IMG/VR virus record: IMGVR_UViG_2609460221_000006
Span: 1-8,325 of that record
Origin: a virus
Taxonomy: Duplodnaviria; Heunggongvirae; Uroviricota; Caudoviricetes
Direction: 5' to 3' (one strand)
DNA: 8,325 nt
Shown piece by piece: positions 2,222 to 5,974 of this stretch. The notes under the pieces are model-generated. The model was not told where the DNA came from. It made no database searches and saw nothing but the letters and a program-made list of their open reading frames with translations. The translations under genes were made by a program, and so were the position numbers. Each line of letters opens with the position of its first letter. The stretch's first letter is position 1.

Positions 2222-2425
2222 TTACGGTGCTGTTTTAAGCCCCGCCGGGATTTCGTTATTGTCCATGTGAATAACTTTATCGACCGGATAACAGTTGCCG
2301 GGAATTTTCTGTTCCGCTGCGGCAGCCATGCATTCTTTCATTGAGTTGTACATGCCGGTGATTGCATCAAGCGACTCACCAGTATTGAGATGTACAGTCA
2401 GAATGAGTACGAATAATGTGTTCAT
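2222..2425 (-). CDS. Small hydrophobic protein, 67 aa, YdfD-like by position (tentative)
   Basis: ATG at 2425 overlaps the dicB stop (ATGA coupling); GGAGA Shine-Dalgarno upstream. N-terminal hydrophobic segment MNTLFVLILTVHL. Its position directly after dicB corresponds to ydfD in the Qin dicB operon; sequence identity to YdfD is not verified. Confidence 0.5.
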   Translation of the reverse strand: MNTLFVLILTVHLNTGESLDAITGMYNSMKECMAAAAEQKIPGNCYPVDKVIHMDNNEIPAGLKTAP

Positions 2426-2610
2426 CGCCACTCTCCGAAAATACCGAGTTTAAGAAGGGCAATTCTGGAGAGTATGGAATTGTCATTCAGCAGGTAGGGT
2501 TCATATTTTCTCATATTGATTGCATCCTCGGTGAAATCCCTGTTACTGAGCAGAACACCAATATTAAAGCACCCGTCAGACGTATTAACGTTTGGTAGTG
2601 ACGTTTCCAT
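2422..2610 (-). CDS. dicB: Cell-division inhibitor DicB homologue, 62 aa
   Basis: Translation METSLPNVNTSDGCFNIGVLLSNRDFTEDAINMRKYEPYLL... matches the recalled DicB signature (LPNVNTSEGCFEIGV...FTEDAINKRK) at the same 62-aa length. GAGGA Shine-Dalgarno 7 nt upstream of ATG 2610; lies just downstream of DicF as in Qin. The ORF track's longer 97-aa version (to 2715) has no support for its N-terminal extension. Confidence 0.8.
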   Translation of the reverse strand: METSLPNVNTSDGCFNIGVLLSNRDFTEDAINMRKYEPYLLNDNSILSRIALLKLGIFGEWR

Positions 2611-2779: not shown

Positions 2780-2822
2780 AAAAAGGGCGGCAGAGCAGTC
2801 ACGGAGTAAAACTGATACCGCC
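2780..2822 (-). terminator. Intrinsic terminator hairpin forming the 3' end of DicF
   Basis: Minus strand GGCGGTATCAG...CTGCTCTGCCGCC stem-loop followed by a run of 5 U (plus-strand A 2780-2784). Probably leaky, since dicB lies downstream in the same operon. Confidence 0.6.
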
Positions 2823-2837
2823 AAAAGTCACCAGAAA
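2785..2837 (-). ncRNA. dicF: DicF small RNA (Hfq-dependent ftsZ-targeting sRNA processed from the dicB operon transcript)
   Basis: Minus-strand sequence TTTCTGGTGACTTTTGGCGGTATCAGTTTTACTCCGTGACTGCTCTGCCGCCC followed by TTTTT, matching the 53-nt DicF as I recall it apart from one possible substitution. Ends in a GGCGG...CCGCC hairpin plus U-tract. The 5' end is processed, so it is approximate. Confidence 0.85.
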
Positions 2838-3172
2838 ATTGATAACAGAGGGCGTTGCAGCGGAGTTGTCACTTAAGCGTATGGTCAACCTGACAACCCG
2901 GTGTCCTCAACGGGGGAAGGAATAACCCCGCCATACTTACCGCCGCGCCATTTCGCGGATTGCCACAACCGGAAGCGCACGGTCGACGAAAATTTAACGA
3001 CAGGCTATCTATGAACCAGCTACCTCGCCGTGCGCTTTCGCGTTATGGTCTGACTTTTCAGGGAAATATCCTTTCAGTAAACTGTCAGTGCCGGATGCTC
3101 ACCCGTGTCCGGCGCACGCACTCCACCTCACCCGTGGAGAACTCCTTAATCACCAACCCTCAGGAGGGTGAA

Positions 3173-3448
3173 ATGTCGACTGAAAATGATGAAATCATTA
3201 ACTCCCTGATACGCCAGATTAATAATTTTGATAAAGCATTGCAACATGCTGCGGCGCGTAGTGATATAACTCTTTTAGCAATTTCATTTCTTGCATCTGT
3301 TATGGATAAAAATGAAGTCGTACGACAGAGTCTTGTTGATTATATCGACTCGCTTCAACCCGGCACTTTCAATCATGAGAGCTTCAATCATGAGAAAGAG
3401 CATGTTAAGTCTGTAATTAATTCTCTTATTTTGAATCAAAAGAATTAA
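3173..3448 (+). CDS. Hypothetical protein, 91 aa, in an AT-rich island (unknown function)
   Basis: Strong Shine-Dalgarno CAGGAGGGTGAA directly before ATG 3173. The in-frame upstream part of the ORF-track call (2960-3172) is GC-rich with no RBS and is rejected. Base composition drops sharply at 3173. Predicted mildly acidic and helical, with an FNHES-FNHE tandem repeat; no motif I recognise. Confidence 0.6.
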   Translation: MSTENDEIINSLIRQINNFDKALQHAAARSDITLLAISFLASVMDKNEVVRQSLVDYIDSLQPGTFNHESFNHEKEHVKSVINSLILNQKN

Positions 3449-3746
3449 TGCTTTTTGTTGCAAAGTAATTTTCAAGGGGTTCTATTCGAATCCCTTTCTT
3501 TTTCATTAACAAGCCAAACCCCTTATCAATGATGTCCATTAGATCCAGGAAGTATTTTTCATGTAAATCCTGGTTATCAGAGAGCTGCTTCTCTTCGTAC
3601 AGCCCGATAAAGGCTCGGCGTACGTTACCGGATATATTGTCGATGGTTTCTTTTTCTACGGTACTCAGGTCAAGAGTCGCCAGTTGAGAGCGAACCACAT
3701 TCGATGCCATTTCCTGGAATGGTACTGGTAAATCTTTAAATTCCAT
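3426..3746 (-). CDS. Hypothetical protein, 106 aa, in the AT-rich island (unknown function)
   Basis: ATG 3746 is preceded by GAGGT at good spacing. An alternative ATG at 3758 overlaps the upstream gene's stop (TGATG) and gives 110 aa. Co-oriented with the dicB operon, convergent with 3173-3448 and overlapping its 3' end by 23 bp. Acidic, helical, no recognisable catalytic motif. Confidence 0.6.
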   Translation of the reverse strand: MEFKDLPVPFQEMASNVVRSQLATLDLSTVEKETIDNISGNVRRAFIGLYEEKQLSDNQDLHEKYFLDLMDIIDKGFGLLMKKKGIRIEPLENYFATKSINSFDSK

Positions 3747-3757
3747 CGTCAACCTCA

Positions 3758-3910
3758 TCAGTCAGTGTTTCTGGTTAACCAGCGACGCGCGCCAGCTTCA
3801 GTTTTAAACGTTTTGCTTCTGGTATATGTCATCGCGGTAAACGTGCCGTCCTGGTTGGGAAACACGCCGCATACCAGAGATTCGTTGTTGCCAAGCTCGA
3901 TAGTATCCAT
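3758..3910 (-). CDS. Small protein, 50 aa, YdfA-like (DUF1391-like, tentative); first gene of the leftward operon
   Basis: ATG 3910 has a GAGGT Shine-Dalgarno 5 nt upstream. The longest ORF starts at 3991 (77 aa) but with a weaker RBS. Product MDTIELGNNESLVCGVFPNQDGTFTAMTYTRSKTFKTEAGARRWL resembles, from memory, the ~51-aa YdfA that heads the Qin dicB operon. Confidence 0.5.
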   Translation of the reverse strand: MDTIELGNNESLVCGVFPNQDGTFTAMTYTRSKTFKTEAGARRWLTRNTD

Positions 3911-4091
3911 GCTGACCTCATTTCCCCTTAACGCCGGGGTAGCGGAACAAAAACCTGCTGCATAGTTATTAAAGTTGAACCCTGCCGTCATGTTCTTACG
4001 CCTCGGGCTGGCTACTTAACCCCTGACCACTGCCGGGTAACTCGAAGTATTGCCTGGCGTTCTGTGGGGCGGGGTGGGTTGATGAATGAAC

Positions 4092-4131
4092 AATACCACT
4101 ACTATTTAATTATGTAAATAGCAGTGCTATT
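4092..4131. promoter_or_regulatory. Leftward (PL-like) operator region: two copies of a 16-bp AAATAG-N4-G(C/G)TATT site in opposite orientations
   Basis: 4116-4131 is AAATAGCAGTGCTATT on the plus strand; 4092-4107 reads AAATAGTAGTGGTATT on the minus strand. Together they form a 30-bp near-palindrome (4097-4126). The same motif occurs twice in the repressor/cro intergenic region. Lies upstream of the leftward operon, with TTTACA / TATTGT-like hexamers nearby on the minus strand. Confidence 0.45.
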
Positions 4132-4142
4132 ATCGTGGCAAG

Positions 4143-4164
4143 AAAAAAAACCACCCGAAGGTGG
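4143..4164 (-). terminator. Rho-independent terminator ending the paaR2-paaA2-parE2 operon
   Basis: Minus strand CCACC-TTCG-GGTGG hairpin immediately followed by 8 U (plus-strand A 4143-4150), 17 nt downstream of the parE stop. Confidence 0.7.
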
Positions 4165-4180
4165 TTGTTGACAGGAAGGA

Positions 4181-4471
4181 TTAACAGGTTTTGTTTGGAT
4201 ACTGTCTTCGTGAGTGAACTACATTTACGATCTCGATGTTAGATGCTGTTACTCGGTAAAGTATTATGTAGTTAGGATGAGTCACTATCTCACGAAGACT
4301 TGGAACTCTTTCGCTCGGTGGGTACAGATAAGGGTGTTCAGTAAGTGACAAAACTGATGTTTCAATGCGTATTTTTAGTCTACGTGCAGCGGGAGGGTTT
4401 TCCTTAGCAATATAGGCTACGATCTGACGTAAATCATCACGTGCAGAAGGTAGCCATAAAATGGGCAGCAT
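4181..4471 (-). CDS. parE2: ParE/RelE-family type II toxin, 96 aa (ParE2-like)
   Basis: Translation MLPILWLPSARDDLRQIVAYIAKENPPAARRL...REIVTHPNYIILYRV...IEIVNVVHSRR shows the ParE/RelE pattern. Start overlaps the stop of the upstream antitoxin ORF, a typical toxin-antitoxin arrangement. Confidence 0.85.
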   Translation of the reverse strand: MLPILWLPSARDDLRQIVAYIAKENPPAARRLKIRIETSVLSLTEHPYLYPPSERVPSLREIVTHPNYIILYRVTASNIEIVNVVHSRRQYPNKTC

Positions 4472-4662
4472 TACTCACTCCTGTTCGTTGCAGCTAATTG
4501 AGCAATAAGGTTTTCCATTTCAGCCATTACTTCGTCATGTGGAATTGCAGGACGGGGATCTGAGAGGCTTGCTGCCACTTTGGTTCGCAACCATTCGTTA
4601 TAGCTGTTTTCTTGTTCGACTGTTTCAAATTCAGAAATTATCGGGGAAAGGGCTGTACTCAT
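4471..4662 (-). CDS. paaA2: Small antitoxin, 63 aa (PaaA2-like), partner of ParE2
   Basis: 63-aa acidic ORF immediately upstream of, and coupled to, the ParE gene. GAGGAGG Shine-Dalgarno 7 nt before ATG 4662. Size and context fit the PaaA2 antitoxin of the paaR2-paaA2-parE2 module described in E. coli O157:H7 prophages; the name is by synteny and recall. Confidence 0.7.
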   Translation of the reverse strand: MSTALSPIISEFETVEQENSYNEWLRTKVAASLSDPRPAIPHDEVMAEMENLIAQLAATNRSE

Positions 4663-4679
4663 GTTTTTACCTCCTCAGA

Positions 4680-5181
4680 TTAGGCGCGACGACCCTTTTG
4701 CGCAGCTAGCCATCGCGCAACGATTTCTTCAATTGATTCTTTTTTCTCCTTCATTTCCTTAAGCATTTTCTCTTTATCTTCTTTGGGGAAAGCCCTGAAC
4801 GTCTGGAGCAAATCCCGCTCCATGGGGTCTATATTAAACGGAAGTTCGTTTTCCGATTGTTCCATATCTGCAGATATAGTGACAACATTGTCCTCCCCAG
4901 ATTCTTGGGGATACATCCTTACAATTTGTAACAACTCGGCCATATCTGGTCTGATTGACTCGGGAGGAACTTGCAGCAACCCTGCGAACTTGATAACAGC
5001 CTCAAGATTTAAAGGTGTCTGACCATTTAGATAATGGCTTACAGCTCCCTGTGTCGAAAATCCCAGAATTTCTGCCGCACGCTCTTGGGTTAACCCTAGT
5101 TGAATTTTTTTTCGCCGTCCAGATTTCTTTCAGTCTCTGGGCGGCTTGCAGGTCGATCTCTGACAGGGATTTTCTTTTCAT
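4680..5181 (-). pseudogene. paaR2: Lambda cI-like HTH repressor (PaaR2-like), reading frame broken in an A8 run
   Basis: ATG 5181 with GAAGG Shine-Dalgarno gives MKRKSLSEIDLQAAQRLKEIWTAKK, then the frame is lost in the A8 run (plus-strand T 5105-5112). The -1 frame continues (KK)IQLGLTQERAAEILGFSTQGAVSHYLNGQTPLNLEAVIKFAGLLQVPPESIRPDM... to TAA 4680. The joined N-terminus closely resembles the lambda CI N-terminal domain ([27 protein letters not shown]...). The intact-frame tail is the 4680-4979 ORF in the track. Confidence 0.75.
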
Positions 5182-5288
5182 ACCTTCAATTCTAATAAGA
5201 TTATTAATCTCTTTGAAATAGTGATGCTATTTACTTTTAAAAATAACAATGCTATTAATGATCGTGATGACATCACATGAGGTGAACA
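5182..5288. promoter_or_regulatory. Divergent promoter/operator region between the cI-like and cro-like genes (PRM/PR analogue)
   Basis: Two direct copies of the 16-bp motif, AAATAGTGATGCTATT (5216-5231) and AAATAACAATGCTATT (5241-5256), 25 bp centre to centre. A 13-bp perfect palindrome GTGATGACATCAC (5264-5276) and TAATAA-GA-TTATTA (5193-5206). Candidate rightward promoter TTTACT-N17-TATTAA. GAGGTG Shine-Dalgarno before ATG 5289. Confidence 0.55.
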
Positions 5289-5564
5289 ATGAATCTTGGA
5301 GAATATTTGCATCATTCCGGTATAACTCAGAAGCATTTTGCTGAAATTGTTGGGGTAACCCAAGGGATGGTAAGCCATGTCATTACCGGACGGGCGAAAC
5401 TTACGGGGAAAAAAATTTTACGCTGGTGCGAAGCAACAGGCTGGATAGTAACTCCGCACGAGATTGATGGCAGTACTTATCCCAACCCAACCGACGGCTT
5501 ACCTGTCGAGTATCAGGCTAACACACAACCAGAGGCGGGGGTGATTCATGAAAATCAAGCATGA
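5289..5564 (+). CDS. ydaS: Cro-like HTH DNA-binding protein, 91 aa (YdaS-like)
   Basis: HTH segment ITQKHFAEIVGVTQGMVSHVITG. Divergent from the cI-like gene across an operator-rich spacer; Shine-Dalgarno GAGGTG at 5279-5284. Confidence 0.8.
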   Translation: MNLGEYLHHSGITQKHFAEIVGVTQGMVSHVITGRAKLTGKKILRWCEATGWIVTPHEIDGSTYPNPTDGLPVEYQANTQPEAGVIHENQA

Positions 5565-5584
5565 ACACATCCGCATGGCAATGA

Positions 5585-5974
5585 ATGCCTGGGCGCATCC
5601 GGACGGCGAAAAAAGTACCGGCTGCGAAAATTACCAAAGCGTATTTCGAGCTGGGAATGACGTTCCCGGAACTGTATGACGACAGCCATCCGGAAGCCCT
5701 GGCCCGTAATACCCAGAAAATTTTCCGTTGGCTGGATAAAGACACCCCTGATGCTGTTGAAAAAATGCAGGCTCTGTTACCGGCGATCGAAAAGGCGATG
5801 CCGCCTTTGCTGGTGGCCCGTATGCGCAGCCACAGTTCTGAATATTACCGTGAGATCGTCGAACGGAGGGATCGGCTGGTGAAGGATGTCGATGATTTTG
5901 TTGCGTCAGCGGTTGTTTTGTATGACCAGATGAATCGCGGCGGCCCGGCAGGGAATGCTGTGGTGATGCACTAA
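5585..5974 (+). CDS. ydaT: YdaT-like (CII-analogue) protein; longest intact frame shown, native start probably ATG 5548 with a frameshift in an A6 run
   Basis: The 129-aa ORF from ATG 5585 has no Shine-Dalgarno and begins right after an in-frame TGA. ATG 5548 has a strong GAGGCGGGGG RBS and overlaps the cro-like stop; it encodes MKIKHEHIRMAMNAWAHPDGEK and then leaves the frame at the A6 run 5609-5614. One A fewer would give a ~140-aa product, the size I recall for YdaT. The gene name is by synteny with Rac ydaS-ydaT. Confidence 0.6.
   Translation: MPGRIRTAKKVPAAKITKAYFELGMTFPELYDDSHPEALARNTQKIFRWLDKDTPDAVEKMQALLPAIEKAMPPLLVARMRSHSSEYYREIVERRDRLVKDVDDFVASAVVLYDQMNRGGPAGNAVVMH

Follow-up and report, generated by a model that had tools for sequence, protein, structure and literature searches.

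The window, the whole stretch of 8,325 nucleotides analysed here, corresponds to the immunity region of a lambdoid prophage of E. coli. The genes and regulatory sites identified in it are summarized in Table 1. The PaaA2-family antitoxin and ParE-family toxin genes are located directly downstream of the regulator gene, which encodes an immunity repressor. Leftward beyond ydfA lie an ORF without known identity, DicF, dicB, a DUF1482 gene and an exonuclease gene of the ExoVIII family. To the right of the repressor gene are the Cro/YdaS-like gene, ydaT, and the O-like and DnaC-like replication genes. Past the leftward promoter (PL), the window showed no N-type antiterminator gene. The same region is present in NZ_AP022069, where an apparently complete 48-kb prophage adjoining ompW is 99.9% identical to the window over positions 3700-5600.

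Table 1 Genes and predicted regulatory sites in the immunity region (window coordinates).
Feature	Position	Strand	Description
dicB cell-division inhibitor gene	2422-2610	-	Pfam PF05358, 111.7 bits
DicF sRNA gene	2785-2836	-	Rfam RF00039, 75.8 bits
ydfA-like DUF1391 gene	3758-3910	-	Pfam PF07151 and annotation of L001; first gene after PL
Candidate PL	4090-4118	-	-35 TTTACA (4118-4113), 17-nt spacer, TG-extended -10 TATTGT (4095-4090), start near A4083
OL1 dyad	4092-4106		AATACCACTACTATT; over PL spacer and -10; centre at about -16 from predicted start; promoter-proximal
OL2 dyad	4117-4131		AATAGCAGTGCTATT; perfect consensus; abuts/overlaps PL -35; centre at about -41
Intrinsic terminator of the repressor-paaA-parE operon	4141-4166	-	Stem-loop 4166-4149, then T-run; kept in relatives
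ParE-family toxin gene	4181-4471	-	Pfam PF05016, 65.5 bits
PaaA2-family antitoxin gene	4471-4662	-	Pfam PF21217, 77.1 bits
Immunity repressor gene	4680-5181	-	HTH; 166 aa if intact; broken here by an extra A at 5103
PRM-like promoter	5189-5217	-	TTCAAA-17-TAGAAT (promoter scan); hexamers invariant in relatives
Candidate weak OR3	5194-5208		AATAAGATTATTAAT; 5 mismatches; over repressor-promoter spacer, 23 bp from OR2 centre
OR2-equivalent dyad	5217-5231		AATAGTGATGCTATT; about -41 from PR start, about -43 from PRM-like start
Candidate PR	5230-5258	+	TTTACT-17-TGnTATTAA; 8/12, read by eye, below scan threshold
OR1-equivalent dyad	5242-5256		AATAACAATGCTATT; over -10 of rightward promoter
Cro/YdaS-like HTH gene	5289-5564	+	91 aa

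Between positions 2411 and 8325, the sole differences between the window and NZ_AP022069 were three insertions of one A each within A-runs (4143, 5103 and 5609). The insertion at 5103 frameshifts the repressor gene and that at 5609 frameshifts ydaT. Because the intact repressor (WP_000824162.1 in NZ_AP022069) was found on at least 1000 contigs, the insertions are most likely homopolymer assembly errors. If the insertion at 5103 were real, this copy would make no repressor, and its binding sites would be empty unless another copy supplied the protein. The exonuclease ORF also stops in an A-run (about 940-946), with an in-frame continuation if one A is removed.

The initial annotation described a leftward operator composed of paired 16-bp sites and noted the same 16-mer twice beside the repressor gene. 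These 16-mers were all recovered: AAATAGCAGTGCTATT at 4116-4131 on the plus strand, AAATAGTAGTGGTATT at 4092-4107 on the minus strand, and two more beside the repressor gene, AAATAGTGATGCTATT at 5216-5231 and AAATAACAATGCTATT at 5241-5256 (one mismatch). When up to one mismatch was allowed, the pattern AAATAGNNNTGSTATT gave five matches at four places in the window, compared with 0.02 expected, and none of 200 shuffles reached five. Each site is itself a 7-1-7 dyad with the consensus AATAGCA-N-TGCTATT, and thus the orientation of any single site is ambiguous. This consensus, with up to three mismatches, matched the window four times (0.30 expected). The window contains four 15-bp dyads of the form AATAG-N5-CTATT, two at the left operator (OL1 and OL2) and two at the right (OR1 and OR2). 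In a near-identical complete prophage of 50 kb (L053), AATAG-N5-CTATT with up to one mismatch occurred at the four dyad places and once in the exonuclease gene, the latter match being at chance level.

The left pair was also said to form a 30-bp palindrome. The palindrome exists (4097-4126; 12 pairs with a 6-nt loop) but is a by-product, since a palindromic consensus in two adjacent copies automatically gives rise to a larger palindrome; the functional unit is the dyad of 15-17 bp. OL1 and OL2 are spaced 25 bp centre to centre. No third OL site was found 23-25 bp on either side of the pair, where the terminator and the GC-rich backbone are located.

As initially proposed, the OL sites lie just downstream of the terminator of the repressor-toxin-antitoxin operon and upstream of the leftward ydfA, DicF, dicB and ExoVIII-family exonuclease genes. 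The candidate PL detected here by the promoter scan matches the consensus at 9 of 12 positions and carries the additional TG; 9/12 matches were no commoner in the region than in shuffles, and no other leftward promoter-like site lies between the terminator and DicF. From PL to ydfA runs a leader of 173 nt (3911-4083, minus strand) that is conserved in heteroimmune prophages, as is the GC-rich CCCACCCCGCCCC within it. Folding of this leader in search of a structured element gave a result no better than shuffles (z = +1.0).

The layouts of PL and PR are alike, with dyad centres at about -16 and -41 in both. The hexamers of the candidate PR are nearly invariant in relatives. The predicted start of the PRM-like promoter falls on the repressor ATG at 5181, and thus the repressor mRNA would be leaderless. 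The cI mRNA of lambda is leaderless, and lambda CI activates PRM from OR2 at about -42/-43, the same geometry as that of the OR2-equivalent dyad here. A leaderless mRNA has been shown experimentally for paaR2. At the place of the candidate weak OR3, a better copy, ATTAGCAATCTTATT, is present in the class of relatives whose repressor is 78% identical to that of the window. At the ydaS/ydaT junction, GTGATTCATGAAAATCAA (5541-5558) differs at one position from the YdaT box as published (TTGATT-N6-AATCAA) and is a possible PRE-like site by analogy with CP-933P. Matches to this box numbered two, compared with 0.76 expected, which is not statistically significant alone.

We compared the intact repressor, taken from L001 (5980-6480), with proteins of known structure and with PaaR2 of CP-933P. 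Residues 2-90 are homologous to the N-terminal domain of lambda CI (1LMB, 3BDN and 7JVT; E ~1e-9), and the repressor has a basic N-terminal arm, as this domain of CI does. The PDB alignment to full-length CI ends at about residue 115. Residues 123-166 align with the C-terminus of PaaR2 at 55% identity (E 3e-16); only these last 44 amino acids align, and no similarity was detectable between the N-terminal DNA-binding domains of the two proteins. The earlier designation of the repressor as PaaR2-like is thus correct for the C-terminal 44 amino acids and incorrect for the DNA-binding domain, which is a homologue of the CI N-terminal domain. As judged from these alignments, the repressor is a chimera of a CI-type N-terminal domain and a PaaR2-type C-terminus, and this explains operators unlike the GTTTAGTAA repeats of CP-933P. 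The operators of lambda are 17-bp-class dyads spaced about 24 bp apart, and a CI-type N-terminal domain fits dyads of this kind.

No S24/LexA-type autocleavage domain was found in the repressor, for which Pfam gives HTH_3/HTH_31 only. Thus, induction of the prophage is presumably RecA-independent. The HTH of the Cro-like protein is 35% identical to that of the repressor, and the recognition-helix motif TQGxVSH is common to both. The two proteins probably read the same dyads, as their counterparts do in lambda and CP-933P.

A scan of one genome per bacterial species found no relatives of the repressor, and the conservation evidence was therefore drawn from IMG/VR contigs. We collected 44 related contigs, whose repressors are 78-100% identical to that of the window. 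The conservation that the initial annotation had proposed to check was observed throughout: all four dyads were present at the same relative positions in 44 of 44 contigs. Within 4-6.5 kb at these 44 loci, no further dyads with up to three mismatches were found except the weak third OR site of the 78% class.

Variation at each column was counted over the unique sequences, 27 for OL and 21 for OR. Of 40 columns in the arms (AATAG/CTATT), 4 were variable, compared with 13 of 20 for the five central columns, and 50-76% of positions were variable in the intergenic flanks outside the sites and promoters. The PL -35 was invariant and the -10 nearly so, and the OL2 arms were invariant in all 27 unique sequences. 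Overlapping -10 and -35 hexamers could account for part of the arm conservation. The promoter-distal arms that lie outside the hexamers (OL2 4127-4131 and OR2 5217-5221) are equally conserved, indicating that the footprint reflects more than the promoter. Across classes, the repressor and the Cro-like protein each keep an invariant HTH region, and protein divergence is located in the N-terminal tail, the linker and the C-terminus.

In the 78% class (L027-L034 and L044), the T/A-run in the PL spacer (equivalent to 4107-4112) varies in length, which gives distances of 24-28 bp from OL1 to OL2 and 16-20 nt between the -35 and the -10. This variation could be sequencing noise or real variation in promoter strength.

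The immunity type appears to be confined to certain E. coli and close relatives. It is a common type, with most of the immunity region present in about 1.3% of complete E. coli genomes. Among deposited phage genomes, no named phage with this immunity region was found, with two short, weak matches only. The repressor appeared under generic names only in the literature and databases searched, and nothing was found on an AATAG-N5-CTATT operator in the literature on other PaaR types (paaR1).

Thousands of E. coli prophages have a common ydfA-side and ydaT-side backbone and differ in their immunity cassettes. We compared the window with five heteroimmune types (L002 and L049-L052). In each, the backbone homology stops at GGGGCGGGGTGGGT (4066-4079 in the window), past which each type has its own dyads, recurring between its own repressor and cro genes, for example ACAATAAAAAACTGT in L002, GTAAC-N-GTTAC in L049, and GTTTAGT/ACTAAAC in L052. 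Across these six immunity types on one backbone, the operator changes with the repressor, and relatives with the same HTH keep the same arms. A 6 x 6 matrix of the best ungapped 14-mer matches between OL and OR was not cleanly diagonal (own-type 12-14, cross-type up to 13), and we therefore based the case for co-variation on the dyads themselves, by inspection.

L052 represents the type of CP-933P, a cryptic prophage of E. coli O157:H7: its regulator begins with MQKKE, as sequenced for PaaR2, and the published PL933P primers exactly match its segment between parE2 and the backbone anchor. Positions 4083-4180 of the window are the positional counterpart of the cloned PL933P fragment, which drives gfp expression and on which PaaR2 and YdaS each exert about 100-fold repression (Jurenas et al. 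2021, PMC8630535). In both prophages, OL/PL is located on the common backbone directly after the parE terminator and before the ydfA leader, and the gene order is repressor-paaA-parE, OL/PL and the dicB region. Both also have an operator motif common to OL and OR and a repressor promoter predicted to be leaderless. In contrast, their operators are unrelated, with GTTTAGTAA-type repeats published for CP-933P (PMC8630535) and AATAG-N5-CTATT here. Three sites, OL1-3, were reported for PL933P, whereas two OL dyads are recognisable in the window.

A similar arrangement is found in Qin of E. coli K-12, in which DicA represses dicBp 22-fold via PL-like operators, according to the account of Bejar et al. 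1988 given in PMC10448788. Qin likewise has a CI-like repressor gene followed by a PL-like promoter that drives ydfA...dicF-dicB, its dicBp operators resemble those between the repressor and cro genes, and its repressor is without a RecA-cleavable domain. It differs in having no paaA-parE between the repressor gene and PL, and in belonging to another repressor family with another operator sequence. Both Qin and lambda are described with three OL sites, in contrast to the two recognisable here. Lambda shares with the window the homologous CI N-terminal domain and dyad operators about 24-25 bp apart over the -10 and -35. Accessory genes lie between the repressor gene and OL in both, rexAB in lambda and paaA-parE here. 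The differences from lambda are the operator sequence and the LexA/S24-type C-terminal domain of CI, which is absent here.

We evaluated whether the repeats might be promoter sequence of a duplicated PL/PR, conserved as RNA-polymerase elements and not as operators. In favour of this reading, the dyads and the -35 and -10 hexamers share positions, and an extended -10 (TGnTATT) can be read within the half-site TGCTATT. In addition, OL of L050 scored 13/14 against OR of the window, apparently because of a common AT-rich stretch around the -35 (TTTAC), by inspection. However, a promoter does not need the dyad symmetry that each site shows, and the distal arms of OL2 and OR2 outside the hexamers are invariant whereas the adjacent centres and flanks vary. 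Heteroimmune prophages, moreover, keep a promoter at this place and swap the dyads together with the repressor. A purely promoter-based origin of the repeats is improbable on these grounds. Another explanation is that the main ligand of the dyads is the Cro/YdaS-like protein or a PaaA-ParE complex instead of the CI-like repressor. The TQGxVSH motif of the Cro-like HTH is in common with the repressor, YdaS of CP-933P represses PL933P as strongly as PaaR2 (PMC8630535), and type II toxin-antitoxin complexes commonly autoregulate. Binding by Cro nevertheless leaves room for the repressor, as both proteins bind in lambda and CP-933P. The PaaA2 protein matched the short PaaA2 Pfam domain only and had no DNA-binding domain match, and the same OL/OR architecture is present in heteroimmune relatives that carry no toxin-antitoxin genes (L049-L051). 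We consider it unlikely, to much the same degree, that one of these proteins is the main ligand in place of the repressor.

The palindrome of 30-46 bp might alternatively act through hairpin formation: as a cruciform, or in RNA as a back-up terminator or another element that handles read-through from the repressor-toxin-antitoxin operon. It was flagged as terminator-like by the scan, RNA of the minus strand has a predicted folding energy of -20.8 kcal/mol, and most related classes were predicted to form a long hairpin at this place. The stem, however, is AT-rich with three G-C pairs and is followed by GTATTGTTCA, not a T-run, and a strong canonical terminator is already located about 20 nt upstream. 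The 78% class has lost the central stem without compensatory change (about -10 kcal/mol), so that pairing is limited to sequences in which both dyads fit the consensus. The motif is also present in the OR pair, which is in direct arrangement with the same orientation and forms no comparable element. We rejected the hairpin or terminator reading because of the AT-rich stem, the missing T-run, the nearby terminator and the uncompensated loss, and consider a role of this kind very improbable.

Thus, positions 4090-4131 very probably comprise the OL/PL of a lambdoid E. coli prophage, controlled by the repressor and driving the DicF/DicB operon. Judged by its layout, it is an ordinary lambdoid OL/PL of standard design, in an immunity type for which we found no published description. 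In the proposed mechanism, OL1 would occupy the -10 and spacer, and OL2 the -35, of a leftward sigma-70 promoter that would drive ydfA, DicF, dicB and probably the exonuclease gene. Dimers of the immunity repressor would bind both OL dyads and block RNA polymerase. The repressor would also bind the OR pair, shutting off the rightward cro/ydaS-ydaT-replication genes. From OR2, at about -43 from its own leaderless promoter, it would have the position from which lambda CI activates PRM. With its near-identical recognition-helix motif, the Cro-like protein probably binds the same dyads. The analysis establishes the motif with its statistics and dyad symmetry, the overlap with the candidate promoter, the pattern of conservation, the co-variation with immunity type and the match in position to a promoter whose repression was measured; repressor binding, repression, cooperativity and any loop between OL and OR (1.1 kb) are inferred.

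A more tentative suggestion, which we regard as possible though rather unlikely, concerns the octamerising PaaR2-type C-terminal segment of the chimeric repressor. Four dimers, placed on the two OL and two OR dyads, might loop the 1.1 kb between OL and OR around paaA-parE and thereby form a RecA-independent bistable switch. If true, such a loop would couple the toxin-antitoxin system to expression of the DicF/DicB division inhibitors.

The analysis defines the operator precisely as AATAG-N5-CTATT at four sites and gives a map of the predicted promoters for an immunity type that is uncharacterised in the sources searched. It shows the toxic dicBF operon connected to whatever immunity cassette the common backbone carries, and records domain shuffling between repressors of the lambda-CI and PaaR2 types. 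The current understanding of lambdoid regulation is unchanged.

By analogy with Qin, transcription from PL would extend to dicB and the exonuclease gene. The 3' stem-loop of DicF, followed by TTTTT (2780-2836, minus strand), looks like a leaky terminator. Transcription from PL may partly terminate before dicB, as described for Qin. Inside the leftward operon, a convergent rightward ORF of up to 145 aa (3011-3448, plus strand) was without a Pfam match. This ORF, annotated as hypothetical in NZ_AP022069, comes with a promoter-like site of its own and a hairpin resembling a terminator (3474-3496, plus strand).
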